This document shows positions 4,415-64,000 of a stretch of DNA of 64,000 bases, in pieces. Numbering within the stretch: position 1 is the first letter of the stretch; each line of letters starts with the position of its first letter. The notes under the pieces are model-generated. The model was not told where the DNA came from. It saw only the letters and a list, made by a program, of their open reading frames with translations, and searched no databases. The stretch is from Escherichia coli. Its GTDB lineage: Bacteria; Pseudomonadota; Gammaproteobacteria; Enterobacterales; Enterobacteriaceae. The position numbers were made by a program, and so were the translations under genes. Where the stretch lies: assembly GCF_030384885.1 (NCBI RefSeq), contig NZ_CP128613.1; one strand, 5' to 3'.

Positions 4415-5269
4415 TTAACCTGCAATAGCCATTCCTACCGTCATGTGCAGGCCATAAAAGAGCACACGCCCGATCATCTCACCGCCAAGTATGAGGATTA
4501 GCCCCAGAATAAGTCCGGCAACGTGAGGTTCACGGCGACGAATGAGCGGACAAAGCCAGCATCCTAGACCTGTGCATAACAATACCACACGCCAGACCTG
4601 TAAGGAGGCGTAATCTGGTACCAGTGCGCTGGCTTGTTGTACGGATGAGTGAATAGACGCCAGAGACAAACCTTGCAGCACAATCACCCCGGCACAAGCG
4701 ATCAGCGCCAGAACGCTAATGATGGCAAATGGTGTGGTATTAAATGTAACGCGGGCTGCCCGCAGAATTGCGGCAGCAAGTATTGGACCGCTCAATAAAA
4801 CTGTCAGGAAGAAAGCCAGCGTAGTGTAACCGTTATGCCAGGTTGGCACAGTGTCGATTTGATACACGCAGGTCATCATCCAGACGAAAATGACGCCGAG
4901 CGCCATGCTGACAAGTAACCAGAGTTTCCCCAGCGCTTGCGGCATTTTACCAATGACCGCCACCAGCCACCATAATCCGCCAACGGCAAAAAATATTGAA
5001 CCGGCAGCAATCTCGTTACTCAGGCCGGAAGCTCCGATTCGATTCAGCGAGTTAAACGCCCGCAGTGGCGATCCCAGGTGCATGACAGAGGCAATAAACC
5101 CGATGCCCATCAGCAGCCAGAGGAAAAACATGCCACGGACAATACGCTGACGGTCTGCGTCATTTTTGCTGGCGAACCAGCCGATTCCGCTAATAATCAG
5201 CGCGCCTACGACGCATTGGCCCAATACGGTAAAGATAACCAGTGGCCATTCGTGCCATCCATTTCCCAT
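4415..5269 (-). CDS. ynfH: DmsC-family membrane anchor subunit YnfH
   Basis: 284-aa polytopic hydrophobic protein directly downstream of ynfG. Confidence 0.92.
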   Translation of the reverse strand: MGNGWHEWPLVIFTVLGQCVVGALIISGIGWFASKNDADRQRIVRGMFFLWLLMGIGFIASVMHLGSPLRAFNSLNRIGASGLSNEIAAGSIFFAVGGLWWLVAVIGKMPQALGKLWLLVSMALGVIFVWMMTCVYQIDTVPTWHNGYTTLAFFLTVLLSGPILAAAILRAARVTFNTTPFAIISVLALIACAGVIVLQGLSLASIHSSVQQASALVPDYASLQVWRVVLLCTGLGCWLCPLIRRREPHVAGLILGLILILGGEMIGRVLFYGLHMTVGMAIAG

Positions 5270-5270
5270 T

Positions 5271-5888
5271 TTAAACTTCCTCCGGATTAGCCAGGTAACC
5301 AGTGGTATCGCCGGTCGGGCGGCTGTTGGCGTTAGGTTTGATTACGATATTAGGTTTTGTGAAATGCGCGCGCGGCAGTGGCGCGACGGCAGCCAGAGTA
5401 CCGTGTTTCTGGCGCAGCTCTTCAATTGGACCGAACTCAAGTGCACGCAGCGGGCAGGATTCGACACATATGGGTTGTTTCCCCTTGGCGACGCGCGAAT
5501 AACAACCATCGCACTTCGTCATGTGCCCTTTTTCAGCATTGTACTGTGGCGCGCCGTACGGACAAGCCATGTGGCAGTAGCGGCAGCCGATACAAACATC
5601 TTCATCAACCACCACAAAGCCATCTTCACGCTTATGCATTGCGCCGCTGGGGCAGACTTTTGTACATGCGGGGTCATCGCAATGGTTACAGGAGATGGAG
5701 AGATAATAAGCGAACACGTTCTGGTGCCAGACGCCATTATCTTCCTGCCAGTCGCCGCCAGCATATTCATAAACACGGCGGAAACTGACTTCCGGGCCAA
5801 GATCTTTAAAATCTTTGCACGCCAGTTCGCAGGTTTTACAGCCAGTACAGCGGCTGGAATCGATAAAAAATCCATATTGTGTGGTCAT
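5271..5888 (-). CDS. ynfG: DmsB-family 4x[4Fe-4S] electron-transfer subunit YnfG
   Basis: 205 aa with repeated CxxCxxCxxxCP ferredoxin motifs (CTGCKTCELAC, CNHCDDPACTKVCP, CIGCRYCHMACP). Confidence 0.93.
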   Translation of the reverse strand: MTTQYGFFIDSSRCTGCKTCELACKDFKDLGPEVSFRRVYEYAGGDWQEDNGVWHQNVFAYYLSISCNHCDDPACTKVCPSGAMHKREDGFVVVDEDVCIGCRYCHMACPYGAPQYNAEKGHMTKCDGCYSRVAKGKQPICVESCPLRALEFGPIEELRQKHGTLAAVAPLPRAHFTKPNIVIKPNANSRPTGDTTGYLANPEEV

Positions 5889-5898
5889 GGGCTACTCC

Positions 5899-8325
5899 TT
5901 AAACCTTTTCGATCTGGACGAGATTGCTGTGCGACGGGTTTCCCTTTGCCAGCGGTGAAGGGCGGTGAGAGGTCAGAATATTGATACTGCCGCCGTGATC
6001 GACCCGGTCACCAAACATATCCGCTTTAAGCCACGCACCTTGCCCGATGGCGGTAACGCCAGGCAGAATACGCGGAGTCACTTTTGCGGCAATCAGCATT
6101 TCTCCATTATTGTTAAATACCCGCACGGTATCGCCATGACGGATACCGCGTGCCTGAGCATCAATGGGGTTGATCCACACCTCTTGTGGGCAGGCCTGCT
6201 GTAACACATCAATATTGCCGTAGCTGGAGTGGGTACGCGCTTTGTAGTGGAAGCCCGTTAACTGCAGTGGATAGGTTTTGCGCAGGGGATCGTCCCAGCC
6301 ATCAAAACCTGGGGTATACGCAGGAAGGGGATGAATTATTTCATCTTTTTTCAATTCCCATGTGTCAGCAATCGTCGCCAGCCGTTCAGAATAAATTTCG
6401 ATTTTCCCCGAAGGTGTTTTCAACGGGTTTGCCTGTGGATCTTCACGGAATGCGCGGAAAGCGACGTAATGTTCTTCCGGGCATTTTTTCTTAAAGATCC
6501 CGGTCGTTTTCATCTCCTCGTAGTCCGGCATCTCAGGGTTACGTTCCTTCGTTTTCGCATGGAGATATTTGATCCATTCATGCTGGCTGCGACCTTCAGT
6601 AAAAGTTTGATAAACGTCTGGTCCTAAGCGTTTCGCGACTTCACTCAGAATCCAGTAGATGGGTTTGCGTTCAAATTTTGCCGAGGTGGCGGGTTGGGCG
6701 AGGATCACATAGCCCATATTCCCTGCAGATTCATGAGAGATAAGGTCTTCTTGCTCTGTTGGCATCAGGTCGGGCAACAGGATATCGCAATACTTAGCCG
6801 AGGCCGTCATGAAGTGGTCAATGCCAACAATCATCTCGCACTTGCTGTCATCCTGAAGCACCTCATGGGTGTGATTGATGTCGCCATGTTGATTGATCAA
6901 TGTGTTACTGGCGTAGCACCACAAAAACTTGATTGGCACATCCAGTTTCTCTTTTCCACGAATACCATCACGGGTCGCGGTCATTTCCGTACCGTGGTCG
7001 ATGGCATCTGTCCATGTAAAGACGGAAATCTGCGTTTTAACAGGATTATCAAGCATCGGGAACCATTCGACCCCCAGATCCCAGCTACCTTCGCGTACAC
7101 CTGAGTTGCCGCCGTTTATGCCGACGTTACCGGTGAGAACGGAAAGCATGGCAATAGCGCGGGACGTTTGCTCGCCGTTGGAGTGTCGTTGTGGCCCCCA
7201 ACCCTGACAAATATAAGCAGGTTTTGCTGAACCGATCTCTCGTGCCAACTGGATAATTTTTTCTGCCGGGATGCTGGTGATTTTTGCTGCCCATTCCGGC
7301 GTTTTAGCTATGCCGTCAGGCCCTTCGCCCAGAATATAGGCTTTATAATGCGCGTTACGTGGTGCGTTGGCGGGCAGCGTTTTTTCATCGTAACCAACAC
7401 AATATTTGTCGAGAAATGGCTGATCGACCATGTTTTCCGTAATCAGTACCCAGGCAATCGCACAGGCCAGTGCGCCATCGGTGCCAGGGCGAATGGGCAG
7501 CCATTCATCTTCACGCCCGGCAGCTGTGTCGTTATAACGTGGATCAATGACGATCATGCGTGCGTTTGAACGTTCGCGGGCTTGCTCGACGTAGTAAGTG
7601 ACACCACCGCCGCTCATCCGGGTTTCTGCCGGGTTATTTCCGAACATAACGACCAGCTTCGTATTGGCGATATCATCCGGGCTGTTGCCATCATTGGCAC
7701 CGAACATATAACTCATTGCGGCACTGATCTGTGCGGTACTGTAGCTGCCATAGCGACTGAGAAAACCACCACAAGAGTTCATCAGACGGTACGGGACGTT
7801 TGAGTTGGTGATGTTTCCGCCATCTACGCCTGTTCCATAGAGAACATGTACAGCCTCATTTCCGTAATCTTTTAGGATCCGCCGAAGATTATCACTGATG
7901 GTATCCAGGGCTTCGTCCCAACTTATCCGTTCAAATTTACCTTCACCGCGCTTGCCGACGCGCTTCATGGGATATTTCAGCCGATCAGGATGATTCATCC
8001 GTCGGCGGATAGAGCGCCCGCGTAAACAGGCCCGAACCTGATGATTACCGTAAACGTCGTCACCTGTCGTATCAGACTCCACCCAGTACACAGTGTCATC
8101 TTTCACATGCAAACGTAACAGACAGCGGCTCCCGCAGTTAACGGTGCAGGAACTCCAGACCGCTTTCTCTTCTACCGGAGCCTCTGCCGCTCGGACCATT
8201 TGGGAAAATGGCAGAGTGAAAGCACTGCTTGCCAGCGCGAGACTGCCAAGTGCGGAGGTTTTCATCAGACTTCTACGGCTGATTTCAGCCTTCATGAGCG
8301 CCTCTGTGGTATGGATTTTCATCAT
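5899..8325 (-). CDS. ynfF: Molybdopterin (DMSO-reductase family) catalytic subunit YnfF
   Basis: 808-aa ORF with twin-arginine signal SRRSLMKTSALGSLALA and N-terminal Cys cluster CTVNCGSRC. It is a paralogue of ynfE. The true start may be the second Met. Confidence 0.92.
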   Translation of the reverse strand: MMKIHTTEALMKAEISRRSLMKTSALGSLALASSAFTLPFSQMVRAAEAPVEEKAVWSSCTVNCGSRCLLRLHVKDDTVYWVESDTTGDDVYGNHQVRACLRGRSIRRRMNHPDRLKYPMKRVGKRGEGKFERISWDEALDTISDNLRRILKDYGNEAVHVLYGTGVDGGNITNSNVPYRLMNSCGGFLSRYGSYSTAQISAAMSYMFGANDGNSPDDIANTKLVVMFGNNPAETRMSGGGVTYYVEQARERSNARMIVIDPRYNDTAAGREDEWLPIRPGTDGALACAIAWVLITENMVDQPFLDKYCVGYDEKTLPANAPRNAHYKAYILGEGPDGIAKTPEWAAKITSIPAEKIIQLAREIGSAKPAYICQGWGPQRHSNGEQTSRAIAMLSVLTGNVGINGGNSGVREGSWDLGVEWFPMLDNPVKTQISVFTWTDAIDHGTEMTATRDGIRGKEKLDVPIKFLWCYASNTLINQHGDINHTHEVLQDDSKCEMIVGIDHFMTASAKYCDILLPDLMPTEQEDLISHESAGNMGYVILAQPATSAKFERKPIYWILSEVAKRLGPDVYQTFTEGRSQHEWIKYLHAKTKERNPEMPDYEEMKTTGIFKKKCPEEHYVAFRAFREDPQANPLKTPSGKIEIYSERLATIADTWELKKDEIIHPLPAYTPGFDGWDDPLRKTYPLQLTGFHYKARTHSSYGNIDVLQQACPQEVWINPIDAQARGIRHGDTVRVFNNNGEMLIAAKVTPRILPGVTAIGQGAWLKADMFGDRVDHGGSINILTSHRPSPLAKGNPSHSNLVQIEKV

Positions 8326-53800: not shown

Positions 53801-56233
53801 CAAAAGCTGACGTTAGCCGAACATGGCGGAGCCTATGGCGCAACGGCCGATATGTCGGCAAAAATCGGTGGTGAAGGGGATCTGGCAATCAATACGGTGC
53901 GACAGGTTTCGCTTTCCAACGGTCAGAACGACTATCAGGGGGCAACCTATGTTCAGATGGGGACATTACGTACCGATGCGGATGGCGCGCTGGGCAATAC
54001 TCGGGAACTGAACATCAGCAACGCGGCCATCGTCGATCTTAATGGATCGGAGCAGACGGTAGAGACATTCACCGGGCTGATGGGTTCGACTATTTTGTTC
54101 AAAGAAGGTTCGCTGACGGTGAATAAAGGTGGGATCAGTCAGGGCGAACTGACAGGTGGCGGAAACCTGAATGTTTCAGGGGGAACACTGGCTATCGAGG
54201 GGCTTAATGCACGCTACAATGCGTTAACCAGCATTAGCCCAAATGCGGAAGTCAGCCTCGACAATACGCAGGGGTTAGGCAGAGGAAATATTGCCAATGA
54301 CGGTCTGTTAACGCTAAAAAACGTGACCGGCGAACTGCGCAATAGCATAAGCGGTAAAGGTATCGTGAGCGCAACCGCCAGCACAGACGTAGAGCTGGAT
54401 GGCGATAATAGCCGCTTTGTGGGGCAATTCAACATCGATGCAGGCAGCGCGCTCAGCGTCAACGAGCAGAAAAACCTGGGTGATGCTTCCGTTATCAATA
54501 ATGGCCTGCTCACCATCGCCACTGAGCGTAGCTGGGCGATGACGCACAGTATCACCGGTAGCGGCGATGTGACAAAACTGGGGACCGGGATCCTGACTCT
54601 TAACAACGATTCCGCGGCGTATCAGGGTACGACGGATATCGTGGGTGGTGAAATTGCTTTCGGTTCCGACTCTGCCATTAATATGGCAAGTCAGCACATT
54701 AATATCCATAACAGCGGTGTGATGTCGGGAAATGTCACCACTGCAGGTGATGTGAACGTTATGCCTGGGGGGACACTGCGTGTCGCCAAAACCACTATCG
54801 GCGGCAATCTGGAGAATGGTGGCACGGTTCAAATGAATAGCGAAGGGGGGAAACCGGGGAATGTACTGACCGTTAACGGCAACTATACCGGAAACAATGG
54901 CCTGATGACGTTCAACGCGACGCTGGGCGGCGATAATTCACCCACGGATAAAATGAACGTGAAAGGCGATACCCAAGGGAACACTCGCGTTCGGGTTGAT
55001 AACATTGGCGGCGTCGGTGCACAAACGGTCAACGGTATTGAACTCATTGAGGTTGGCGGTAATTCTGCAGGCAACTTCGCGCTGACCACCGGAACTGTCG
55101 AAGCTGGGGCTTACGTCTACACACTGGCTAAAGGGAAGGGGAATGACGAGAAAAACTGGTATCTAACCAGTAAATGGGAAGGCGTAACGCCACCGGATAC
55201 ACCCGATCCCATCAATAATCCTCCTGCTGTGGATCCGGAAGGCCCATCAGTTTATCGCCCGGAGGCCGGAAGCTATATCAGCAACATTGCCGCAGCCAAC
55301 TCGCTGTTTAGCCATCGTTTACACGACCGTCTGGGTGAGCCGCAGTATACAGATTCACTGCATTCTCAGGGTTCGGCAAGCAGTATGTGGATGCGTCATG
55401 TCGGAGGGCACGAACGTTCAAGGGCCGGTGACGGTCAGCTAAATACACAGGCTAACCGCTATGTATTGCAGCTAGGCGGCGATTTGGCGCAGTGGAGTAG
55501 CAACGCGCAGGATCGCTGGCATCTCGGCATCATGGCAGGCTATGCCAATCAGCACAGTAATACTCAGAGTAATCGTGTGGGTTATAAATCGGATGGGCGC
55601 ATCAGCGGTTACAGCGCTGGGATGTACGCGACCTGGTATCAGAACGATGCGAATAAGACCGGCGCTTATGTTGACAGCTGGGCGCTGTATAACTGGTTTG
55701 ATAACAGCGTCAGTTCCGATAACCGTTCTGCTGACGACTATGATTCTCGCGGTGTGACGGCCTCTGTTGAGGGTGGATATACCTTTGAAGCGGGAACATT
55801 TAGCGGCAGCGAAGGGACGCTGAATACCTGGTACGTCCAGCCACAGGTGCAAATCACCTGGATGGGTGTGAAAGATTCTGACCATACCCGGAAAGACGGA
55901 ACACGCATTGAAACGGAAGGTGACGGAAACGTGCAAACTCGACTTGGGGTGAAAACCTACTTGAACAGTCATCACCAGCGCGACAATGGTAAACAGCGTG
56001 AGTTCCAGCCTTACATTGAAGCGAACTGGATCAACAACAGCAAAGTCTACGCCGTGAAGATGAATGGTCAAACCGTAAGCCGTGATGGTGCGCGTAATCT
56101 CGGTGAAGTACGTACCGGGGTTGAGGCGAAAGTAAATAACAACCTTAGCCTGTGGGGGAATGTTGGTGTGCAACTAGGTGATAAAGGCTATAGCGATACT
56201 CAGGGCATGCTGGGTGTGAAATATAGCTGGTAA
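50813..56233 (+). CDS. yneO: Full-length AIDA-I/pertactin-type (type Va) autotransporter adhesin; K-12 yneO (ydeK/ydeU) pseudogene locus
   Basis: 1806 aa from ATG 50813 (GGAG 8 nt upstream). It has an extended signal peptide (MNRIYRVIWNCTLQVFQACSELTRR...ALSGSASGA) and a long passenger with many G-x-G-T-L-N-I beta-helix repeats. A Pro-rich linker PPDTPDPINNPPAVDPEGP precedes a C-terminal beta-barrel ending GVKYSW. Confidence 0.88.
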   Translation: MNRIYRVIWNCTLQVFQACSELTRRVGKTSTVNLRKSSGLTTKFSRLTLGVLLALSGSASGASLEVDNGQITNINTDVAYDAYLVGWYGTGVLNILAGGNASLTTITTSVIGGNEDSEGTVNVLGGTWRLYDSGNNARPLNVGQSGTGTLNIKQKGHVDGGYLRIGSSTGGVGTVNVEGEDSVLTTELFEIGSYGTGSLNITDKGYVTSSIVAIVGYQANSNGKLVVEKGGEWLIKNNDSSIEFQIGNQGTGEATIRDGGLITAENTIIGGNLTGIGTLNVQDQDSVITVRRLYNGYFGNGTVNISNNGLINNKEYSLVGVQDGSHGVVNVTDKGHWNFLGTGEAFRYIYIGDAGDGELNVSSEGKVDSGIITAGMKETGTGNITVKDKNSVITNLGTNLGYDGHGEMNISNEGLVVSNGGSSLGYGETGVGKVSITTGGMWEVNKNVYTTIGVAGVGNLNISDGGKFVSQNITFLGDKASGIGTLNLMDATSSFDTVGINVGNFGSGIVNVSNGATLNSTGYGFIGGNASGKGIVNISTDSLWNLKTSSTNAQLLQVGVLGTGELNITTGGIVKARDTQIALNDKSKGDVRVDGQNSLLETFNMNVGTTGTGTLTLTNNGTLNVEGGEVYLGVFEPAVGTLNIGAAHGEVAADAGFITNATKVEFGLGEGVFVFNHTNNSDAGYQVDMLITGDDKDGKVMHDAGHTVFNAGNTYSGKTLVNDGLLTIASHTADGVTGMGSSEVTIASPGTLDILASTNSAGDYTLTNALKGDGLMRVQLSSSDKMFGFTHATGTEFAGVAQLKDSTFTLERDNTAALTHAMLQSDSENTTSVEVGEQSIGGLAMNGGTLTFDTDIPAATLAEGYISVDTLVVGAGDYTWKGRNYQVNGTGDVLIDVPKPWNDPMANNPLTTLNLLEHDDSHVGVQLVKAQTVIGSGGSLTLRDLQGDEVEADKTLHIAQNGTVVAEGDYGFRLTTAPGDGLYVNYGLKALNIHGGQKLTLAEHGGAYGATADMSAKIGGEGDLAINTVRQVSLSNGQNDYQGATYVQMGTLRTDADGALGNTRELNISNAAIVDLNGSEQTVETFTGLMGSTILFKEGSLTVNKGGISQGELTGGGNLNVSGGTLAIEGLNARYNALTSISPNAEVSLDNTQGLGRGNIANDGLLTLKNVTGELRNSISGKGIVSATASTDVELDGDNSRFVGQFNIDAGSALSVNEQKNLGDASVINNGLLTIATERSWAMTHSITGSGDVTKLGTGILTLNNDSAAYQGTTDIVGGEIAFGSDSAINMASQHINIHNSGVMSGNVTTAGDVNVMPGGTLRVAKTTIGGNLENGGTVQMNSEGGKPGNVLTVNGNYTGNNGLMTFNATLGGDNSPTDKMNVKGDTQGNTRVRVDNIGGVGAQTVNGIELIEVGGNSAGNFALTTGTVEAGAYVYTLAKGKGNDEKNWYLTSKWEGVTPPDTPDPINNPPAVDPEGPSVYRPEAGSYISNIAAANSLFSHRLHDRLGEPQYTDSLHSQGSASSMWMRHVGGHERSRAGDGQLNTQANRYVLQLGGDLAQWSSNAQDRWHLGIMAGYANQHSNTQSNRVGYKSDGRISGYSAGMYATWYQNDANKTGAYVDSWALYNWFDNSVSSDNRSADDYDSRGVTASVEGGYTFEAGTFSGSEGTLNTWYVQPQVQITWMGVKDSDHTRKDGTRIETEGDGNVQTRLGVKTYLNSHHQRDNGKQREFQPYIEANWINNSKVYAVKMNGQTVSRDGARNLGEVRTGVEAKVNNNLSLWGNVGVQLGDKGYSDTQGMLGVKYSW

Positions 56234-56447: not shown

Positions 56448-56714
56448 ATGATGAGCTTTCAGAAGATCTATAGCCCAACGCAATTAGCGAATGCAATGAA
56501 ACTGGTTCGTCAGCAAAATGGCTGGACGCAGAGCGAGCTGGCGAAAAAAATCGGTATTAAGCAGGCGACAATTTCCAATTTCGAAAACAATCCTGACAAT
56601 ACCACGCTCACGACATTTTTTAAGATTTTACAGTCGCTTGAACTCTCAATGACGCTATGCGACACGAAAAATGCCTCGCCAGAATCAACAGAACAGCAAG
56701 ATCTGGAGTGGTAA
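56448..56714 (+). CDS. hipB: Antitoxin / HTH-XRE repressor HipB
   Basis: 88 aa from MMSFQKIYSPTQLANAMKLVRQQNGWTQSELAKKIG... Confidence 0.94.
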   Translation: MMSFQKIYSPTQLANAMKLVRQQNGWTQSELAKKIGIKQATISNFENNPDNTTLTTFFKILQSLELSMTLCDTKNASPESTEQQDLEW

Positions 56715-58036
56715 TGCCTAAACTTGTCACTTGGATGAACAACCAGCGGGTAGGCGAGTTAACGAAGTTAGCCAATGGCGCGCACACCTTTAAGTATGCA
56801 CCGGAGTGGTTAGCCAACCGTTATGCCAGACCGTTATCACTTTCGCTGCCATTGCAGAGGGGGAATATCACCTCTGATGCCGTATTTAACTTCTTCGATA
56901 ACCTGTTACCCGATAGCCCGATTGTACGTGACCGGATCGTTAAACGTTATCATGCTAAATCCAAGCAACCGTTTGATTTATTGTCAGAAATAGGGCGAGA
57001 TAGCGTTGGTGCCGTAACGTTATTACCCGAAAATGAAACCATAACGCGCCCGATAATGGCATGGGAACAGCTCACTGAAGCCAGGCTTGAAGAAGTATTA
57101 ACGGCTTATAAAGCAGATATCCCTCTAGGCATGATTAGAGAAGAAAATGACTTTCGCATCTCGGTTGCTGGCGCGCAGGAGAAGACAGCGCTGCTCAGAA
57201 TAGGCAATGACTGGTGCATTCCGAAAGGAATAACGCCGACGACGCACATCATTAAATTACCGATTGGCGAAATCAGGCAGCCCAATGCGACGCTCGATCT
57301 CAGCCAAAGCGTTGATAATGAGTATTACTGTCTGCTGCTGGCGAAAGAACTTGGGTTGAATGTGCCGGACGCAGAAATCATTAAAGCGGGAAATGTGCGC
57401 GCGTTAGCGGTCGAACGTTTTGACAGGCGTTGGAATGCTGAGCGAACGGTTTTACTTCGCTTGCCACAGGAGGATATGTGTCAGACATTCGGTTTACCTT
57501 CATCGGTGAAATATGAATCAGATGGAGGCCCAGGCATCGCGCGGATCATGGCTTTTTTGATGGGGTCCAGCGAGGCGCTGAAAGATCGCTATGATTTTAT
57601 GAAGTTTCAGGTGTTCCAGTGGTTGATTGGCGCAACGGATGGCCATGCAAAAAACTTCTCCGTATTTATTCAGGCTGGCGGCAGTTATCGACTCACGCCA
57701 TTTTACGACATCATTTCAGCATTTCCGGTATTGGGTGGCGCAGGAATACACATCAGCGATCTCAAACTGGCAATGGGGCTTAACGCATCCAAAGGCAAAA
57801 AAACGGCAATCGATAAAATTTATCCGCGACATTTTCTGGCGACAGCAAAGGTGCTGAAATTTCCGGAAGTGCAGATGCATGAAATCCTGAGTGACTTTGC
57901 CAGAATGATTCCGGCAGCACTGGATAACGTGAAGACTTCATTACCGACAGATTTTCCGGAGAACGTGGTGACGGCAGTTGAAACCAATGTGTTGAGGTTG
58001 CACCGTCGGTTAAGCCGAGAATACGGTATTAAGTAA
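56714..58036 (+). CDS. hipA: Ser/Thr kinase toxin HipA
   Basis: 440 aa from MPKLVTWMNNQRVGEL. The ATG overlaps the hipB TAA by 1 nt. G22, S150, D291 and D309 are all present by hand count, so this is the wild-type allele and not hipA7. Confidence 0.94.
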   Translation: MPKLVTWMNNQRVGELTKLANGAHTFKYAPEWLANRYARPLSLSLPLQRGNITSDAVFNFFDNLLPDSPIVRDRIVKRYHAKSKQPFDLLSEIGRDSVGAVTLLPENETITRPIMAWEQLTEARLEEVLTAYKADIPLGMIREENDFRISVAGAQEKTALLRIGNDWCIPKGITPTTHIIKLPIGEIRQPNATLDLSQSVDNEYYCLLLAKELGLNVPDAEIIKAGNVRALAVERFDRRWNAERTVLLRLPQEDMCQTFGLPSSVKYESDGGPGIARIMAFLMGSSEALKDRYDFMKFQVFQWLIGATDGHAKNFSVFIQAGGSYRLTPFYDIISAFPVLGGAGIHISDLKLAMGLNASKGKKTAIDKIYPRHFLATAKVLKFPEVQMHEILSDFARMIPAALDNVKTSLPTDFPENVVTAVETNVLRLHRRLSREYGIK

Positions 58037-58112
58037 GATATGGGGTTTGGACGTTGTTAATGAGCAGGACAATCATGACCGCCAACGACTGGATTCTGCC
58101 TTGGTTTATGTT

Positions 58113-58144
58113 GGTGCGCATAATGTCAACGCGTTATGTTGAAA
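58113..58144 (+). other. dif: dif-like Xer site forming the left junction (attL) of the filamentous prophage
   Basis: GGTGCGCATAA (exact XerC arm of E. coli dif), then TGTCAACGCG (10 nt), then TTATGTTGAAA (9/11 to XerD arm TTATGTTAAAT). It starts 76 nt after the hipA stop, where K-12 dif lies by my recollection. Confidence 0.75.
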
Positions 58145-58178
58145 AGGCCGCTGCGAAAATCGAATCCCGCAGCGGCCT
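58141..58178 (-). terminator. Intrinsic terminator of the 309-aa cargo gene
   Basis: Perfect 11-bp stem AGGCCGCTGCG/CGCAGCGGCCT (58145-58155 / 58168-58178). On the minus strand it is followed by TTTTC, and that run overlaps the XerD-like arm. Confidence 0.75.
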
Positions 58179-58210
58179 CTTTAGCATAACGTCATTGTGC
58201 GAACCAATAG

Positions 58211-59140
58211 CTACTTTTTCGTATAACTCTCTTCGCATTTAGCCAAAAACAGCAGATTAGTAGCGGTTAAATGAAGGGTATAACTCGCTAAATACTCAGG
58301 AACTTTTGTTATTTCTGCCCCTTGTCCATGTCCACCTTCTTTATTTCGAATGGTTGGAATACCACTCTCAAGTAGAATTCTTATTGAAGAAAATTGATTC
58401 TGGAGGTATTCAGGTACTAAATTATTTGCCAAACAACTGTTAATTAGTTTTTTAGCTGTGTCAGTATCATTAAATTGCCAAGAATGTTTTTTATGTATGG
58501 CTTTCATTAGACTTTCAAAAGATTTGAGGCAATCATTTAAACATTCTTTATATCGCTGATGTCTATAATGCTCATGGGCGGATAAAAACTCATCGTTTGC
58601 TCCGTTATAACTCTTGTTCTTACCAAGAATCTGAAGCGTAGGCTTTACAACATCAGAATGAATGAATTGTGAGTCAACTTTAACCAACTCTCCTGACTCA
58701 AATTGATATCCAAGACCTGCTTCTTTAAACCTGATATTAAGTTCTTCAATAGCATCATCAGGACTTTGCTTTACTAACCCTCTGAATTTCCACTCATTTG
58801 ATCTTATATACCCGTCTATCAGTTTGAAACATATCTCAATGATATCCAAGCATTTTTCATGATCTCTCTCAGCTAGGAAATAGTCAAAAATTGCCCCGAA
58901 ATTCGATTCAGGATACTGTTTGAGAGAGAATACACCATATTCCTTACACAGCGTTTTATGAACGAGTCTGTAAAGCTTACTTGCTTCCGTTTCATAGTCA
59001 CTATCTTCACCGATAGTATCTCTTACAATATGAACAACCTGAACACGAAATGCATTTGGTATATTCGTGTATTGGTAAACATCAGCTACTTCACCTCTTA
59101 ATTTTTTTTGTCTTTTTGAAAATAATTCGAATATAGCCAA
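58211..59140 (-). CDS. AbiJ-NTD4-like / HEPN-motif protein (candidate abortive-infection or toxin RNase)
   Basis: 309 aa from a TTG start with GAGGA 7 nt upstream. The N-terminus MAIFELFSKRQKKLRGEVADVYQYTNIPNAFRVQVVHI resembles the AbiJ N-terminal domain 4 / STM4504-type family (from memory). The C-terminal R265-N-K-E-G-G-H271 (58328-58348) fits the HEPN R-x4-6-H motif. The gene is AT-rich: hand counts gave 18/60 and 23/60 G+C on two lines. Confidence 0.7.
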   Translation of the reverse strand: MAIFELFSKRQKKLRGEVADVYQYTNIPNAFRVQVVHIVRDTIGEDSDYETEASKLYRLVHKTLCKEYGVFSLKQYPESNFGAIFDYFLAERDHEKCLDIIEICFKLIDGYIRSNEWKFRGLVKQSPDDAIEELNIRFKEAGLGYQFESGELVKVDSQFIHSDVVKPTLQILGKNKSYNGANDEFLSAHEHYRHQRYKECLNDCLKSFESLMKAIHKKHSWQFNDTDTAKKLINSCLANNLVPEYLQNQFSSIRILLESGIPTIRNKEGGHGQGAEITKVPEYLASYTLHLTATNLLFLAKCEESYTKK

Positions 59141-59223
59141 TTTATAATCCTCAAAGATATGCCATTAATATGTCTGAGTTGATGAAAATCACACCGCTTT
59201 TACAGTCGTTTTCCACGGTGGAG

Positions 59224-59646
59224 TTACCAGTAATATGAGTTTCTTCTGTGCCACCAATAAAGAAGTCCGTATCCAATGATAAGAATTCCGAAAAACATCA
59301 ACGACATTCCCCAGCCAGTTCCGTACCACGAAACCATATCATCGAAAACTAACCCACCCATTTCACGAACTCCGGCTGCTTCCTTAAGAATTGGTTTGAA
59401 TACCGGAATCAGAAGGGCGATCGCAAGTGGAGCACCCCAGCGAACAAGACCAGTTTCCATTTTGATCCCGAAAAAGATCCCCGCACCGACAACAAGCAAC
59501 CAGACTATCAGGCCAGGCGCAGTTTCTAGTGCTGTTTGCCATTCAACATCGAAAGTTTTCATTAGCCAGGCAACAACTGCCAGACAGAAAGCAAATACGC
59601 CTACAACAACCAGTTCAACGCCGCTTGTTTCGTTATTTCTACTCAT
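59224..59646 (-). CDS. Small four-TM membrane protein of unknown function (prophage cargo)
   Basis: 140 aa from ATG 59646 (MSRNNETSGVELVVVGVFAFCLAVVAWLM...), with four hydrophobic helices. The 189-aa ORF-track form would overlap the upstream gene by 59 nt. It is GC-richer than its neighbours (33/60 on one line). Confidence 0.6.
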   Translation of the reverse strand: MSRNNETSGVELVVVGVFAFCLAVVAWLMKTFDVEWQTALETAPGLIVWLLVVGAGIFFGIKMETGLVRWGAPLAIALLIPVFKPILKEAAGVREMGGLVFDDMVSWYGTGWGMSLMFFGILIIGYGLLYWWHRRNSYYW

Positions 59647-59674
59647 CCTTTTGATCCTTTGTTGCTGTTCAAAA

Positions 59675-59717
59675 TCCGCACAATAAAGAACGTGCAGTGT
59701 AGGTAATACTGCACGTT
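59675..59717 (-). terminator. Hairpin (terminator or attenuator) between the RHH gene and the 4-TM gene
   Basis: Perfect 10-bp stem AACGTGCAGT/ACTGCACGTT (59689-59698 / 59708-59717) with a 9-nt loop, followed on the minus strand by CTTTATTGTG. Confidence 0.55.
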
Positions 59718-59734
59718 TGTACCATTCGTGGTAC

Positions 59735-59917
59735 TTAATCCTTTTGTTTGGCAGACATGAGATCTTCTGCTGCATCTTTAGAGTAGTTATCAATCAGATA
59801 ACCTAAAATCTCTGTCCATGTAATTGTTTTTCCTAGTTTTACACTGGCATTTATAGCCAGTCGTTCTAGTTTCATTTTTCTTTCTTCCGTCACGTTATAA
59901 GTCGTGCGCTTTGCCAT
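59735..59917 (-). CDS. Small ribbon-helix-helix-like protein, probable prophage regulator
   Basis: 60 aa, MAKRTTYNVTEERKMKLERLAINASVKLGKTITWTEILGYLIDNY... shows a beta-strand then two helices. It is divergent from the replication gene, the position of repressors such as RstR in integrating inoviruses. Confidence 0.5.
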   Translation of the reverse strand: MAKRTTYNVTEERKMKLERLAINASVKLGKTITWTEILGYLIDNYSKDAAEDLMSAKQKD

Positions 59918-59964
59918 TTTTTACGCTCGTTCAATGCAATATTTGAAGTGAGTATACATGCTCA

Positions 59965-60043
59965 TGAACTCATATCATCCAAGCCTCTTGAACTCACTAG
60001 CTCACTGGTGTAATGTTTAAACACTAATGAACTACTGAACTCA
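59965..60043. repeat. Iterated TGAACTCA motifs in the divergent phage control region
   Basis: TGAACTCA occurs at 59965, 59989 and 60036, and TGAACTAC at 60028, all in the same orientation, between the RHH gene and gII. Confidence 0.6.
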
Positions 60044-60086
60044 TGTGTTAGTAAGTCGTCATTTTTGTAATTTTGAGGATTTATTC

Positions 60087-61139
60087 GTGATCGATTGGCT
60101 TACCGGGATTTTCCCTTGCACACACAAACCGCTTCCGGCGGGGAGTGTTGTCAGCGTTGATGCTGACGGTGCAATTGAGTGGGAAACCGTTAAGCGACTG
60201 ACTGTTCGCGGTTCGCATGAAGCAACGATGAAAGTACGATCGATAGGATCTAATGGCGAAGGTAAAGCGACACATTTGTACATTGATGGTAATCCTTCCA
60301 AGTTTCTGCAGGGGCATTCTGTTGTTGGGTCGGATGATATACAAGGGCTCATGTTGACGGTCTATGCCAGGATTTTATCCTTATTGAATATTCCTCATGA
60401 TTTAGCGGCTTATAAAGCCGTTATGGCAGGTCAGTATAAAATTTCACGTATTGACATTAATTACATGTATTCATTATCTACGCTGGAAAATGTCAGATCA
60501 TGGCTTTATGCCGCCGAATTTAAAGCTAAAACACGCCATGGTCGCGCATGTGGGAAAGGCGGTACAGTTTATTTAGGTAAAAACTCCCGTCGATGGAGTC
60601 TGAAATTTTATTCAAAATATGATGAACACGTTTCTGGTAAAAAAGGGCACCAGATAGCCGAAGAGTTTGTACGAGCCGGGTTACTGGACTGGACGAAAGA
60701 TAAATTACGTATTGAATTAACATTAAGAACAACTGAGCTTATTGATTTAAATTTAACGCTTGGCGCTAACTGGAATATGAAAACACCACGTCAATTATTC
60801 TCTGAATATGTAGGGAGAATAGAAATGAATCAGAATGCTATTTTAAGTGATGAAAAAATAACGAAACTGCCAAGAAAAATACAGTCAACTTATTTACTTT
60901 GGAAACAAGGGGCTAACATGAAAGAAATGTTACCTCATAACACTTTTTATCGCCATAGAAGAGAATTGCTTTCGTTCGGTATCGATATTAATTTCTATTG
61001 TGATTCACCAGACTCTAATAACGTTGTTCCGCTAATAAGAACGCTGGAAGCCAAGCCAGCGGAAATCCCCTTATGGATTTATGAGAAAGGTTTTATTTTC
61101 GATTACAACCGTATTTCGCACGCCAGTAGCTGGCATTAA
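60087..61139 (+). CDS. Filamentous-phage replication initiation protein (gpII homologue)
   Basis: 350 aa from GTG 60087 (GAGGA 7 nt upstream), VIDWLTGIFPC... Matches to f1 gpII motifs: GNPSKFLQGHSVVGS vs ASPAKVLQGHNVFGT, ISRIDINY vs ISRIDATF, NNVVPLIRT vs NNVVPLVRF. Confidence 0.85.
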   Translation: MIDWLTGIFPCTHKPLPAGSVVSVDADGAIEWETVKRLTVRGSHEATMKVRSIGSNGEGKATHLYIDGNPSKFLQGHSVVGSDDIQGLMLTVYARILSLLNIPHDLAAYKAVMAGQYKISRIDINYMYSLSTLENVRSWLYAAEFKAKTRHGRACGKGGTVYLGKNSRRWSLKFYSKYDEHVSGKKGHQIAEEFVRAGLLDWTKDKLRIELTLRTTELIDLNLTLGANWNMKTPRQLFSEYVGRIEMNQNAILSDEKITKLPRKIQSTYLLWKQGANMKEMLPHNTFYRHRRELLSFGIDINFYCDSPDSNNVVPLIRTLEAKPAEIPLWIYEKGFIFDYNRISHASSWH

Positions 61140-61150
61140 AGGAAAGTAAT

Positions 61151-61468
61151 ATGTCTAATTATGGTCTTTTCGTTAAGGGTAAAATGTTGGGAGCCCGCCA
61201 ACGTAATAAAGTTAATGGTCAGGGCTATTATAATGAAATTGGTATTGGCCTTGAAATACCTGATGGTTTTGGTGGTACAAAGCAGGATCAAATTATTATT
61301 CGAGTTTCTCAGGCTCTCGTTAACGCAGGTCTAATGAACCAGGCGAATGCTTTCATTGGGAAATTAGTTCAAATTCCTGTCTATGTCCGTGCGTGGTCAA
61401 TGGAGGGTAGGGAAGGTGTAACTTATAATGTTTCTTCCGATGGTGGCATCGCAGAGATCAAAGGTTAA
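61151..61468 (+). CDS. Probable ssDNA-binding protein (gpV position)
   Basis: 105-aa ORF directly after gII and before the gVII/gIX analogues. The assignment is by position only; I saw no obvious similarity to f1 g5p. Confidence 0.5.
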   Translation: MSNYGLFVKGKMLGARQRNKVNGQGYYNEIGIGLEIPDGFGGTKQDQIIIRVSQALVNAGLMNQANAFIGKLVQIPVYVRAWSMEGREGVTYNVSSDGGIAEIKG

Positions 61469-61470
61469 AT

Positions 61471-61557
61471 ATGGACGATGTTATTCAAATTTTGATAGCG
61501 TCTGGCATCGTTATTTCTTTTGGCCTCGGCGCGATTACTGCGGGGGTCTTTCGTTAA
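61471..61557 (+). CDS. Minor coat protein gpVII homologue
   Basis: The 28-aa sequence MDDVIQILIASGIVISFGLGAITAGVFR resembles the f1 g7p C-terminus (...FALGIIAGGQR). Its stop overlaps the next ATG (TAATG). Below the ORF-track cutoff. Confidence 0.65.
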   Translation: MDDVIQILIASGIVISFGLGAITAGVFR

Positions 61558-61652
61558 TGTATATCGTTTATTTCTTCGGGGCTTATACCTTTGGTTTTGC
61601 CCTTTTCTATGCGGTCGGTTCATTTAAATCATTTTCTGACCGATTAATGTAA
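61557..61652 (+). CDS. Minor coat protein gpIX homologue
   Basis: 31-aa hydrophobic peptide MYIVYFFGAYTFGFALFYAVGSFKSFSDRLM. Its size and position match f1 g9p. Confidence 0.6.
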   Translation: MYIVYFFGAYTFGFALFYAVGSFKSFSDRLM

Positions 61653-61671
61653 CCTTAATGGAGTTATTCCT

Positions 61672-61914
61672 ATGAAAATTCTGTCTACTGTTAAATATAA
61701 AGTTGCTCTGGCTTCAACTGCGCTTTTTATTTCTGCAAGTTCTTTTGCGGCTGAAGGCGCTACAGGTGGTACTGATTATGCAGGCCAGGCAATGGATGCT
61801 TTGTTGACTCAGGCAAATGATCTCATTGGTAAAGTATGGCCTGTTGTTGTGGCTGTGGTTGGCGCTGGGCTTGCCATTCGTATTTTCAAAAAATTCTCTT
61901 CAAAAGCGGTTTGA
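61672..61914 (+). CDS. Major coat protein gpVIII homologue
   Basis: 80-aa precursor with signal peptide ...ISASSFA|AEGATGG, an acidic N-terminus, a hydrophobic core, and a basic C-terminus [11 protein letters not shown] (f1: KLFKKFTSKAS). Confidence 0.88.
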
Positions 61915-61923
61915 ATTTCACTC

Positions 61924-61947
61924 AGGGGCACTCGTTGCCCCTTTATT
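61924..61947 (+). terminator. Intrinsic terminator after gVIII
   Basis: Stem AGGGGCA/TGCCCCT followed by TTTATT, in the same position as the strong terminator after gene VIII in Ff phages. Confidence 0.75.
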
Positions 61948-61960
61948 AAAGCGGGTTACT

Positions 61961-63211
61961 ATGAAAAGGAAAATATTAATTCTTTCCGCTGTCCTCATTT
62001 CTCCTTTTTCACATGCTGAGTCATGGGAAAGCATTACTAAATCCACTTATCAAAGTTCTGCCTATGCTGAAAGTAAGCAAATAACCAATCAGGATGGCTC
62101 TAAGATAACGGTTTACTATATTGATGCTGCTATGCAGGCCTCCGCTTGTCAGGGTGCTAAATCCAGTGCTCAGAGTGTATTTACTCGGATTAAACCAACT
62201 TATGAGGGTATCTGGCCTGATTCTGAATTCCGTCTTGTTTTTACTGGCGATTGTACTTACAGCGATTCACCAGGGCAGAAGGATAAATATTGGTCTTTAA
62301 CGGCTTATATTGTTGGTAATATTCAGCGTTCTGTTCCTGATGAAAAACCTACTGACCCGACACCAGAAGAAATTTGTGAAGCGAAGCCGCCAGAAGAAGG
62401 TGTATTTAATAATGTTGATTCATATGATGGTGGTCGCTATATCTACTATAACGGCTGTGAATATGAGGCTACTGGTGTCATTGTTTGTCAGGGTGATGGT
62501 ACTGTTTGCGCTGCAACATGGAAGCCTACAGGTGCTGTAGCTGACCCCTCTGATAAACCCTCAACCCCCCAAAATGGTGGTGGTGAGTCTGGCGGTGGTG
62601 AGTCCGGCGGTGGTGAGTCCGGTGGTGGTGAGTCTGGCGGTGGTGAGTCCGGTGGCGGTAGTTCTGGCGGTGGCTCTAGTGGTTCCAGTCTTTCTAAAGG
62701 TGATATTCAGTCTGCGATCGAAGGTGCTTCACCCAAAATAGCCAGCGATATTCATGATAAATTAACGGAGAAAGACACTTCATCAGATGATAAAAAAAAT
62801 GCCGATGAACAAACCAGGAATAATATAAATCGTCTTGACGATTCCATTAACAATCTTACGCGGGGGGCTGGCCGTTTTGCTGACCCTTCAGGTGGTGATT
62901 CTCGTTATGGAAAGGGCGACTCTGAATTAGATGGCGCTTCTACTTTAGCTGATTCTGAATTGGGAATTGAAAAGGATTCTCACGGTGCTTTATGGGAAGC
63001 ATTTTTAAATAAAGGTGCTATGCTGCCTAATTTACCCAATGGTAACGGCTGCTCTGATTTTATTATTTTTCCCGGAGAGGTTTATCAGATTGATATTGGT
63101 TGCGATAAATTACTGACTATTAAAGATGTTCTTTCATGGGTTTTTTATTGCCTTACGTTCTGGTATGTCTTTACTTCTTTAACTTCATTGCTTCGCAAAG
63201 GGGGTGAGTGA
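61961..63211 (+). CDS. Adsorption / minor coat protein gpIII homologue
   Basis: 416 aa from ATG 61961, with signal peptide [19 protein letters not shown]|ES and a Gly-rich linker. The C-terminal anchor [40 protein letters not shown] resembles f1 IDCDKINLFRGVFAFLLYVATFMYVFSTFANILRNKES. Confidence 0.88.
62576..62689 (+). repeat. Tandem 15-bp coding repeats ([10 protein letters not shown] linker of gpIII)
   Basis: Five successive GGTGGTGAGTC(T/C)GG(C/T) units followed by degenerate GGGSS units encode (GGGES)5[10 protein letters not shown]. Confidence 0.9.
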
Positions 63212-63552
63212 TGCCTTTATTATTAGGTATTCCTGCATTGTTGCGTTTTCTTATTGGTCTTGTTCCTTTGTTTATTGGCTATGTGGCGAGTTTTTTAGCT
63301 CGACTTGCTACCAGAACAGGATTAATTGCCTTTGCATTGGTCGCATTAATTACAACAACTGTTACGCTTTTAATGCAGTACCTTGCTGAGGTCATGTATA
63401 ACGGTTTACCTGCTGATTTCTCCCATTTAATGGCGTCTGTATTGCCTGACCATTTTCAGGCGTGTGTTAACGTTATTATGGTTACTCGTATCAGTGTTTT
63501 TGTTTTCGATTTAAAACAAAAATTTCTTGATTATGCAAACAGGGTGATTTAA
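63211..63552 (+). CDS. Minor coat protein gpVI homologue
   Basis: 113 aa, [17 protein letters not shown]...VFVFDLKQKFLDY vs f1 MPVLLGIPLLLRFLGFL...IFIFDVKQKIVSY. The ATG overlaps the gIII TGA. Confidence 0.88.
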   Translation: MPLLLGIPALLRFLIGLVPLFIGYVASFLARLATRTGLIAFALVALITTTVTLLMQYLAEVMYNGLPADFSHLMASVLPDHFQACVNVIMVTRISVFVFDLKQKFLDYANRVI

Positions 63553-64000
63553 ATGGCGGTTTATGTAGTAACAGGCAAATTAGGCTCAGGCAAGACACTT
63601 GTTAGTGTTTCCAGAATACAGGAAAGACTTGCTAAGGGTTGTCCTGTTGCCACTAATCTTGATCTTAAATTGCATAATATGCCTATGGTTGGGCGTTATG
63701 CGAAAAAAACGCGCGTTATTCGCATTCCTGACAAACCTTCATTAAATGATTTACTTGCTATTGGTACTGGGAATACATCTTACGATGAATCCCGTAATGG
63801 CCTCCTTGTACTTGATGAATGTGGTACTTGGTTTAATTCCCGCTCATGGGGTGATAAAGACAGGCAACCTGTTATTGACTGGTTTTTACATGCCAGAAAA
63901 TTAGGCTGGGATATTATATTTTTGATTCAGGATATTTCGATAATGGATAAGCAAGCTCGTCTGGCGCTTGCTGAGCATGTTGTTTATTGTCGCCGTTCAG
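63553..64000 (+). CDS. Assembly ATPase gpI (Zot-like) homologue, 5' part only
   Basis: Hand translation gives MAVYVVTGKLGSGKTLVSVSRIQERLAKGCPVATNLDL...LLVLDECGTWFNSRSWGDKDRQPVIDWFLHARKLGWDIIFLIQD..., near-identical in motifs to f1 g1p, including Walker A GKLGSGKT. It is absent from the ORF track because it runs off the window. Confidence 0.9.
   Translation, partial: MAVYVVTGKLGSGKTLVSVSRIQERLAKGCPVATNLDLKLHNMPMVGRYAKKTRVIRIPDKPSLNDLLAIGTGNTSYDESRNGLLVLDECGTWFNSRSWGDKDRQPVIDWFLHARKLGWDIIFLIQDISIMDKQARLALAEHVVYCRRS

Follow-up and report, generated by a model that had tools for sequence, protein, structure and literature searches.

The closest described systems are phages that exploit XerC/XerD recombination at dif. 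The attP1 site of the Vibrio cholerae phage CTXφ, AGTGCGTATTA-TGTGGCGCGGCA-TTATGTTGAGG, has a 12-nt centre and its attP2 site a 7-nt centre, and the two fold together into the attP(+) substrate (PMC3089051). Catalysis by XerC alone is needed, the intermediate is resolved by replication, and, since duplex DNA masks the fold, the integration is irreversible (PMC3089051, PMC4246890). Ypfφ of Yersinia pestis and CUS-1φ of E. coli O18:K1:H7 are listed in the same class, and it has been proposed that their attP sites have the features of single-strand integration (PMC4246890); the reviews that treat this class come from the Barre and Das laboratories. As described by Derbise and Carniel, Ypfφ has an inverted pair of XerC/XerD sites and an intact dif at its 3' end, is found in tandem copies with an imperfect dif at the copy junctions, and reportedly integrates preferentially between tandem copies, while the ORFs adjacent to attL differ between Ypfφ and CUS-1 (PMC4266046). 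A third relative, UPφ, is a dif-integrated E. coli inovirus whose copy-boundary repeat agrees with dif over no more than its first ~15 bases (Shapiro and Turner 2020, PMC7307601). Its gII and gV are Ypfφ-like (~85% at the amino acid level), the rest is IKe/I2-2-like, three reverse ORFs follow dif, and a GGGES motif was noted in its g3p (PMC7307601). VGJφ and TLCφ also exploit XerCD at dif. The former uses one 29-bp double-stranded attP with a 7-bp centre and two Xer-compatible junctions and is reversible; the latter has a degenerate XerD arm, a centre nearly identical to that of dif and an XerD-first exchange (PMC4246890).

The DNA analysed here is a stretch of 64,000 nucleotides of E. coli (referred to below as the window). 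We consider it highly probable that positions 58113-58144, called site A below, are the left junction (attL) of a UPφ-type prophage inserted at dif, and that XerC and XerD integrated this phage through a two-site, folded, single-strand attP(+). On the + strand site A reads directly as GGTGCGCATAA + TGTCAACGCG + TTATGTTGAAA. The first part, at 58113-58123, is a chromosome-derived XerC arm, identical to that of E. coli dif at 11/11 positions. The central region TGTCAACGCG (58124-58133, + strand) has 10 nt, namely the TGT with which the dif centre TGTATA begins, followed by the phage-specific CAACGCG without any likeness to dif, and the phage-derived XerD-like arm TTATGTTGAAA (58134-58144, + strand) matches dif at 9/11 positions. 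The perfect XerC arm, near-consensus XerD arm and 10-bp centre that the earlier note had described are thus borne out by the counts. A canonical 28-bp dif (11-bp XerC arm, 6-bp centre, 11-bp XerD arm) with at most 3 mismatches does not occur in the 64-kb window, and the spacer of site A, with its 10 bp, departs from that canonical form.

The position of site A is that of the chromosomal dif. It starts 77 bp 3' of the stop codon of hipA (56714-58036, + strand, placed by the ORF list and by the RefSeq annotation of a syntenic locus), the chromosomal gene that flanks dif, and K-12 BW25113 has its dif, GGTGCGCATAATGTATATTATGTTAAAT, at an equal distance after hipA (locus L004, 764-791). Upstream lie hipB (~56448-56714) and, before it, an autotransporter gene. 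The GC content drops from ~47% before site A to ~35-40% after it. A dif-like match with 2 + 3 mismatches and a 9-bp spacer is found at 55646-55676 inside the autotransporter gene; it recurs in all homologous loci and was set aside as a coincidence of the coding sequence. The exact XerC arm occurs only once in the window. XerD-like 11-mers with at most 2 mismatches are common (30 found versus 27 expected by chance), so the case for site A rests on the combination of its parts and on its position. The same abundance lends something to the idea that site A is a mutated or decayed chromosomal dif, or a match by chance, without any mobile element, the resemblance itself being all that speaks for it. 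Inovirus genes directly follow the site, however, and the junction comparisons below refute this idea, to which we give practically no credence.

Searches over 5,426 complete E. coli genomes gave ~5,000 with an empty site, and these align to the window only up to position 58126 (…CATAATGT, …GGTGCGCATAATGT), which speaks against a degenerate chromosomal site. A complete, near-identical prophage is present in NZ_CP062855.1, with 99.4% identity over the 6.1-kb stretch 57900-64000. Its unit has 8,575 bp (8.6 kb) and occurs in two tandem copies, and the junction between the copies reads ccttaccatt-GGTGCGCATAA-TGTCAACGCG-TTATGTTGAAA (locus L001, 15789-15820). This is the window's 32 bp with a phage sequence as the left flank, which means that the sequence is the phage's own site A. 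The attR after the second copy is a perfect 28-bp dif (locus L003, 3401-3428) preceded by the same phage flank. A perfect dif also lies 3' of the prophages in loci L007, L010 and L012, and tandem copies are present in L001, L002 and L009. An intact dif after the prophage and a phage-phage junction of identical sequence again contradict a chance match or a decayed dif. For the strain studied here attR and the second copy lie beyond the window, and we infer them from the near-identical genomes. The prophage had no megablast match in the GenBank phage collection, and no deposited free-phage genome was found, so the attP sequence was taken from the phage-phage junctions of tandem prophages.

The phage's own XerC arm is identical to the chromosomal one in E. 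coli, and as a consequence the crossover cannot be placed within the arm in strains like the present one. Relatives with a marker base in the arm narrow it down. The arm at attL is GGTGCACATAA in Y. pestis as opposed to GGTGCGCATAA at the copy junction (marker at XerC-arm position 6), AGTGCGCATAA in Klebsiella spallanzanii as opposed to GGTGCGCATAA at attR (position 1), and GATGCGCATAA in E. coli VL46 as opposed to GGTGCGCATAA at the copy junction (position 2). In Y. pestis and K. spallanzanii the variant base at attL is the host variant, and the phage base is found at the junction or at attR. These host and phage markers place the exchange between position 7 of the XerC arm and position 4 of the central region, an interval that, as read from the alignments, includes the XerC cleavage point. 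By the same comparisons, 58113-58144 is a true hybrid attL, composed of a chromosomal XerC arm, a phage centre and a phage XerD arm. The earlier note had suggested such a hybrid and had proposed to align it with an empty dif, with the right junction and with attP. The end of the empty-site similarity at 58126 and the phage-phage junction with the same 32 bp now uphold that suggestion, and the alignments with empty-site dif, attR and copy junctions put the crossover at this place and not elsewhere. Site B, the second dif-like site described below, was ruled out as the crossover site, as the junction sits at site A.

The 5.8 kb 3' of site A consist of inovirus genes. The gII replication initiator (60087-61139, + strand; Pfam Phage_CRI and G2P_X_C) is 87% identical at the amino acid level to its Y. 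pestis Ypfφ homologue, and it is followed by the gene gV for the single-stranded-DNA-binding protein (61151-61468, + strand, RefSeq annotation of L001); the gII-gV stretch has 80% nucleotide identity to Ypfφ. Then come, all on the + strand, the major coat protein (61672-61914, RefSeq annotation of L001), the attachment protein g3p with GGGES repeats (61961-63211, from the ORF translation and the annotation), a g6p-like minor coat protein with a DUF5455 domain (63211-63552, L001 annotation) and the start of the assembly protein pI with its Zot domain (63553-64000), which is cut by the end of the window. The pI homologue in L001 is 66% identical to IKe pI at the amino acid level. Past the window end there follow, by comparison with the complete prophage, a secretin, two small ORFs and attR. 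None of the 13 annotated genes of the 8.6-kb prophage unit is an integrase. The packaged strand of inoviruses is the strand of the core genes, as in the Ff phages. All core phage genes lie on the window's + strand, and it follows that site A belongs to the top strand of the packaged strand.

Identification of the prophage as CUS-1/Ypfφ was considered and ruled out, since only the attP region and gII-gV match the Y. pestis locus and pI matches IKe. On the gene content, the prophage is best described as UPφ-type with a Ypfφ/CUS-1-type attachment region: it has Ypfφ-like gII and gV, an IKe-like pI, a g3p with GGGES repeats and reverse accessory ORFs, the comparison being with the published description of UPφ.

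Three reverse ORFs adjoin the attachment region. The first is the accessory or cargo gene (58211-59140, - strand), which codes for a 309-aa protein with AbiJ_NTD4 and DUF7014 domains (Pfam; the RefSeq name is STM4504/CBY_0614 family) and with a weak match to PADLOC PDC-S32. Its GC content is ~35%, and only 5 nt lie between its stop codon and the site B XerC arm, in agreement with the earlier note, which had put the cargo gene at the extreme edge of the element. The gene occupies a variable slot (58206-59223) in which related prophages have other, unrelated genes; the AbiJ_NTD4 + DUF7014 gene is one of several alternatives. The right border of the slot is the stop codon of the second reverse ORF, a conserved gene for a small hypothetical membrane protein (59224-59646, - strand, annotated in L001 and L002), and conservation resumes exactly at 59224 in all relatives. 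The third ORF (59735-59917, - strand) codes for a small conserved hypothetical protein of 60 aa with neither a Pfam nor a PADLOC match.

Between site A and the cargo gene there are two further elements. An apical GC hairpin (58146-58177, + strand) consists of GGCCGCTGCG, a 12-nt loop and CGCAGCGGCC, i.e. a stem of 10 GC-rich pairs, and 4 T follow it on the cargo strand. Next to it is site B (58179-58205, - strand), GGTTCGCACAA-TGACG-TTATGCTAAAG, a dif-like site with a 5-nt centre and two mismatches to dif in each arm, which is inverted with respect to site A and is present in all relatives. The earlier note had recognized site A and had missed this inverted site between the hairpin and the cargo gene. 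It had taken the hairpin for the terminator of the cargo gene; the hairpin with its 4 T is indeed there, although it escapes the terminator scan (12-nt loop, only 4 T) and is conserved independently of the cargo, being kept in phages with unrelated cargo. It may additionally terminate the cargo-gene transcript. An Rfam scan of 57900-60100 returned only generic hairpin matches, all of them below threshold. We regard the hairpin, on the basis of the folding predictions, as the apical stem-loop of a conserved attP(+) fold.

The pairing of a long site A centre with a short site B centre holds throughout the relatives. The spacers of sites A and B have 10 and 5 nt, respectively, in E. coli (the window and L001), 11 and 5 nt in E. 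coli VL46, Y. pestis, Phytobacter and Brenneria alni, 9 and 6 nt in K. spallanzanii, and 11 and 6 nt in L011, a contig binned in an Aerococcus metagenome assembly. Every site A spacer starts with TGT, and none is homologous to dif next to the XerD arm. The + strand DNA is predicted to fold into one long hairpin in which the XerC arms pair with each other, the XerD arms pair with each other, the GC stem-loop forms the cap and 5 bases in the spacer of site A are left as a bulge. The phage junction has a predicted energy of -28.7 kcal/mol (z = -6.5), and the window one of -32.7 kcal/mol (z = -7.4). The bulged hairpin is common to the predictions for the five lineages that were folded, i.e. E. coli, Yersinia pestis, Brenneria, Klebsiella and the Aerococcus-binned contig (-25 to -38.6 kcal/mol, z = -6.5 to -8.5). 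In two loci, L010 (Klebsiella) and L011, the apical hairpin has been swapped for an unrelated sequence and the architecture of the two sites is retained.

The alignment of the arms points in the same direction. When only the arms of the five distinct sequences are aligned, 91.8% of the cells are paired, as compared to 31-44% when the registers are slid by 1-3 columns. Seven pairs are changed on both sides versus 2.4 in shuffles, and 0 of 500 shuffles reach 7; this count refers to five distinct sequences with arms picked by their similarity to dif, and two sites that are each constrained toward dif will show some complementarity from that alone. Examples of covariation are a T-A to A-T change at XerD-arm position 7 in Brenneria, a T-A to C-G change at XerD-arm position 1 in Klebsiella, and changes at XerC-arm positions 1 and 9 in L011. 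G·T wobbles occupy XerD-arm positions 6 and 8 in 4 of the 5 distinct sequences and are once strand-swapped (T·G to G·T). A stable fold is predicted for the - strand as well (-26 kcal/mol, z = -5.2), and it is these retained wobbles that point to the + strand as the folded form.

These observations bear on a simpler route, namely a VGJφ-type double-strand integration in which the replicative form uses only site A to recombine with dif, the exchange being made by XerC and resolved by replication; site B and the hairpin would then be irrelevant to integration and could serve, for instance, as a terminator only. Such an exchange predicts junction sequences identical to those observed, and site A does have the perfect XerC arm and the TGT homology that it would use. 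Since a double-strand exchange at site A gives the same junctions, the anatomy of the prophage alone is no proof of a single-strand route. The spacers of 9-11 bp in all relatives differ, however, from the single 29-bp attP of VGJφ, in the window the site A spacer has 10 bp and is accompanied by a second, inverted site, and this site B is kept in five lineages with compensatory changes in spite of the swapped hairpin. Strand-specific G·T wobbles are retained and the architecture parallels that of attP1 and attP2 in CTXφ, and on balance we find the double-strand route improbable as compared to the folded single strand. A TLCφ-type mechanism does not fit either, as the XerD arm of site A matches dif at 9/11 positions and its centre shares only the TGT with dif.

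It is instructive to compare the locus with CTXφ point by point. Both are inserted at dif without an integrase, the present one at the hipA-proximal dif, and the + strand of both carries a pair of dif-like sites in inverted orientation, one with a long and one with a short centre (12 and 7 nt in CTXφ, 10 and 5 nt here, 9-11 and 5-6 nt in the relatives), so that the top strand is longer by 5 nt in each. The earlier note had mentioned over-long spacers in some CTXφ att sites, and attP1 with its 12-bp centre is a parallel of this kind (PMC3089051). Homology to the dif centre is limited to the TGT beside the XerC arm in both, the crossover here being at the border between the XerC arm and the centre; the XerD arm of the long site is TTATGTTGA in both, and both have a G·T wobble at XerD-arm position 8 (computed for CTXφ from Table II of PMC3089051). 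The + strand fold with duplex arms around a bulged centre is a computed one in our case. An intact dif is regenerated distally and prophages occur in tandem in CTXφ, and the same is seen here in the relatives, the window itself ending inside the prophage.

There are also differences. The gap between the two sites is ~34 nt here versus ~90 nt in CTXφ, and the whole attP has ~93 nt versus ~150 nt. The accessory gene is Abi-like as opposed to ctxAB, the host and the phage lineage are different, the structural genes are IKe-like, and the fold is here a predicted one.

The similarity to Ypfφ is closer in the attachment region. The attP region is 93% identical at the nucleotide level to that of the Y. 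pestis Ypfφ prophage, and the layout is that of Ypfφ/CUS-1φ, with accessory ORFs in reverse orientation beside attL and with copies in tandem, an imperfect dif marking the copy junctions and an intact one the 3' end. On the other hand, the central region has 10 nt here as opposed to the 11 nt of TGTACGACTCG in Ypfφ, the genes for the coat, attachment, assembly and secretin proteins show no DNA-level relationship to those of Ypfφ, and the accessory genes differ. As for UPφ, its description speaks of "a copy of the dif site"; the term attP is absent from it and a two-site fold is not described (PMC7307601).

The mechanism that we propose follows the CTXφ model; the single-strand substrate, the catalysis by XerC only and the irreversibility are taken over from CTXφ by analogy. 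The phage, having no integrase of its own, would integrate at the E. coli dif by means of the host XerC and XerD. In the packaged (+) single strand, sites A and B would pair with each other to give a duplex XerC arm and a duplex XerD arm. The resulting forked-hairpin attP(+) would have a 5-nt bulge in its top strand and conserved G·T wobbles in its XerD arm. XerC would then swap the top strands of attP(+) and dif at the boundary between arm and centre, where the shared TGT would stabilise the exchange, and the pseudo-Holliday junction so formed would become an integrated prophage through replication. On the left, the ligated strand would read chromosome, XerC arm of dif, centre of A, XerD arm of A, hairpin, site B', phage genome; on the right it would read phage genome, XerC arm of A, the dif centre TGTATA and the XerD arm of dif (i.e. 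an intact dif), chromosome. The window shows the predicted order on the left, and the complete relatives show it at their right junction. Once the prophage DNA is double-stranded, the fold would be masked, and site A, whose spacer has 10 bp, should be used only poorly by the Xer recombinases, which would make integration effectively one-way. New phage genomes would arise from the tandem copies via rolling-circle replication.

The long spacer thus acquires a different meaning from the one given to it in the earlier note, where it was seen as a defect that spoils the synapse. By analogy with CTXφ we read it as the designed top strand of a folded substrate whose bottom-strand spacer has 5 nt. The related claim that attL is inert for dimer resolution is plausible on the same analogy. 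A perfect dif is regenerated at attR in the near-identical prophage, and dimer resolution is therefore not at stake. Some caution about the inertness of attL is called for, because Ypfφ has been reported to integrate between tandem copies; this preference for resident copies may reflect homologous recombination or a residual activity of the imperfect site.

A part of the attachment region also turns up outside phages. The 72 bp at 58135-58206 run from the second base of the site A XerD arm through the hairpin and site B to the base that follows site B. With 93-94% identity they are found again at ~475 plasmid sites in E. coli and in at least one chromosome, that of strain 4069. There the module sits just inside one end of transporter insertion sequences of the IS1202 family (ISKpn21-like, ISAba32 subgroup). 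These elements have TGT…ACA ends, imperfect inverted repeats of ~50 bp and a 5-bp target duplication (CACTT in plasmid L005), and a dif or dif-like site adjoins their far end, its XerC arm being 5 bp away. Their gene order is IRR, module, passenger, transposase, IRL, dif. The transposase is a DDE transposase of 466 aa with HTH domains, and the passenger is either an AbiJ_NTD4 + DUF7014 protein, 61% identical to the window's cargo protein, or a SIR2-domain protein. The upstream flank of the passenger is homologous to the upstream flank of the cargo gene in the VL46 prophage. As opposed to the attP of the prophage, the IS copy is without the XerC arm and the central region of site A, and only its apical hairpin folds. 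A bioRxiv preprint on the IS1202 family nowhere mentions phage. The window contains no module-bearing IS of the IS1202 type. We also considered whether an IS1202-type element, inserting 5 bp away from the site B XerC arm, had brought in the cargo; the gene order and orientation do not fit and no IS ends flank the gene, and the idea was dropped.

The occurrence of this module in the IS elements raises the question of whether the hairpin and site B are a mobile 3' flank or terminator of accessory cassettes that travels with the cargo and has no Xer role. The two roles are not mutually exclusive. The 72 bp do adjoin a homologous Abi-like gene in the dif-targeting IS, at the plasmid sites and in the one chromosome alike, the cargo stop codon lies as close as 5 nt to site B, and transcription could end at the hairpin, which has TTTT after it on the cargo strand. 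Against this, the module is constant and the cargo varies, L010 and L011 keep the layout of sites A and B with unrelated hairpins, and the terminator scan does not call the hairpin. Moreover, the absence of the site A XerC arm from the IS copy makes that copy look like a captured fragment of a phage end. We hold a cassette flank without any role in integration to be quite unlikely, even more so than the double-strand route discussed above, and retain the folded two-site attP(+) as the preferred reading.

We speculate, tentatively and with more doubt than belief, that dif-specific inoviruses and dif-targeting IS elements exchange single-gene defence cassettes through conserved flanks, with Xer sites as a shared hotspot. 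If this is true, candidate anti-phage genes would move between phage, IS and plasmid at the Xer sites of chromosomes and plasmids. Site B, which is retained inside the IS, might still bind XerCD. This link between a phage attachment module and an IS is the only lead of the present analysis that may be new.

Otherwise the feature is already known in kind, and its sequence is 93% identical to the described Ypfφ attachment sequence. What is added here is modest, namely that the two-site design extends to the UPφ lineage, that the 10-nt spacer is a variant of the usual 11 nt, and that the fold has comparative support. The attachment region is not rare, since 187 of the 5,426 complete E. coli genomes (~3%), UTI89 among them, match at least 80% of the query 58096-58215. 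In practical terms, dif-like sites with 9-11-bp spacers beside hipA in E. coli should be annotated as left junctions of CTXφ-class inoviruses and not as damaged dif sites, and the place to look for the functional dif is the distal end of the prophage array. The compensatory changes, the G·T wobbles and the replacement of the hairpin give modest support to the view that enterobacterial inoviruses integrate as folded single strands, and they carry this view over to the UPφ lineage. Finally, the genes in the variable slot are defence-like at least in the prophage of the window (Abi-like) and in one relative (a PD-(D/E)XK nuclease domain), the other variants being uncharacterised, and these defence-like genes fit the view of filamentous prophages as elements that arm their hosts.

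One end of a dif-targeting transporter IS of the IS1202 family was found to contain 72 bp of the phage attachment region attP, at 93-94% identity. In the window, this module lies at positions 58135-58206 and comprises a partial XerD arm of site A (the dif-like site at the left prophage junction), the hairpin and the inverted dif-like site B. The IS with the attP module is present in L005, i.e. plasmid p1 (NZ_CP104504.1, 2951-5756), and in L006, the chromosome of E. coli strain 4069 (NZ_CP103673.1, 12164-14926), and there are about 475 sites on E. coli plasmids where the module occurs in the IS. The ends of the IS are TGT…ACA, the duplication is 5 bp long (CACTT in L005), and the opposite end lies next to a dif-like site, with 5 bp between it and the XerC arm. 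The passenger gene of the IS is either SIR2 or Abi-like, the Abi-like version being 61% identical in amino acid sequence to the cargo of the window, and the upstream flank of the passenger is common to the cargo of the related prophage in E. coli strain VL46.

There are a few further observations on the dif neighbourhood. In strain 4069, dif is directly followed on the XerD side by about 8 kb of strain-specific genes (L006, 14960-22900; a LysR regulator, aldo/keto reductases and oxidoreductases), after which come the usual HTH pseudogene and the fimA-like cluster. This segment points to further ways in which the neighbourhood is variable. In contig JARKOR010000214.1 (L007), an additional non-phage segment of about 3.4 kb (4811-8257) separates hipA from the UPφ-type prophage. 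It opens with AGTGCGCATAA-TGTGTTGA-ACATGTTAAAT, where the spacer measures 8 bp, and its far end is formed by a duplicate of the hipA-dif intergenic flank. ORFs of 315, 119 and 334 aa lie in between, and the segment may represent a further element that exploits Xer. JARKOR010000214.1 is labelled as a Candidatus Nanosynbacter MAG, but it carries hipA and a 99% gII and is clearly enterobacterial, so the label looks like binning contamination, as does the Aerococcus label of L011, another metagenomic contig.

A dif-like string, GATGCGAATAA-GACCGGCGC-TTATGTTGACA (55646-55676, plus strand; 2 + 3 mismatches, 9-bp spacer), is located within an ECSE_1600-family autotransporter gene, with counterparts at L001 4753 (in NZ_CP062855.1), L006 9728 and L007 2336. 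It is kept as coding sequence across all homologous loci, and its resemblance to dif is most likely a coincidence.

In the tandem prophage array of NZ_CP062855.1, the assembly (Zot) gene (L003, 1171-1875) of the second copy has 705 bp as opposed to 1,095 bp in full, and of the two small 3' ORFs only one is retained. These losses make the distal copy defective and leave the junction-spanning unit as the only possible source of a complete genome.

Between site B and the conserved membrane-protein gene of the prophage there is a variable slot for a single gene (58206-59223), occupied in the window by the cargo gene (58211-59140, minus strand; GC about 35%), which encodes an AbiJ_NTD4 + DUF7014 protein. 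In other strains the slot holds a hypothetical protein of 250 aa, a protein with a PD-(D/E)XK nuclease domain, or a CxxC…CxxC protein together with a 159-aa ORF. The slot looks like a hotspot for defence/accessory cassettes in UPφ/Ypfφ-type prophages.
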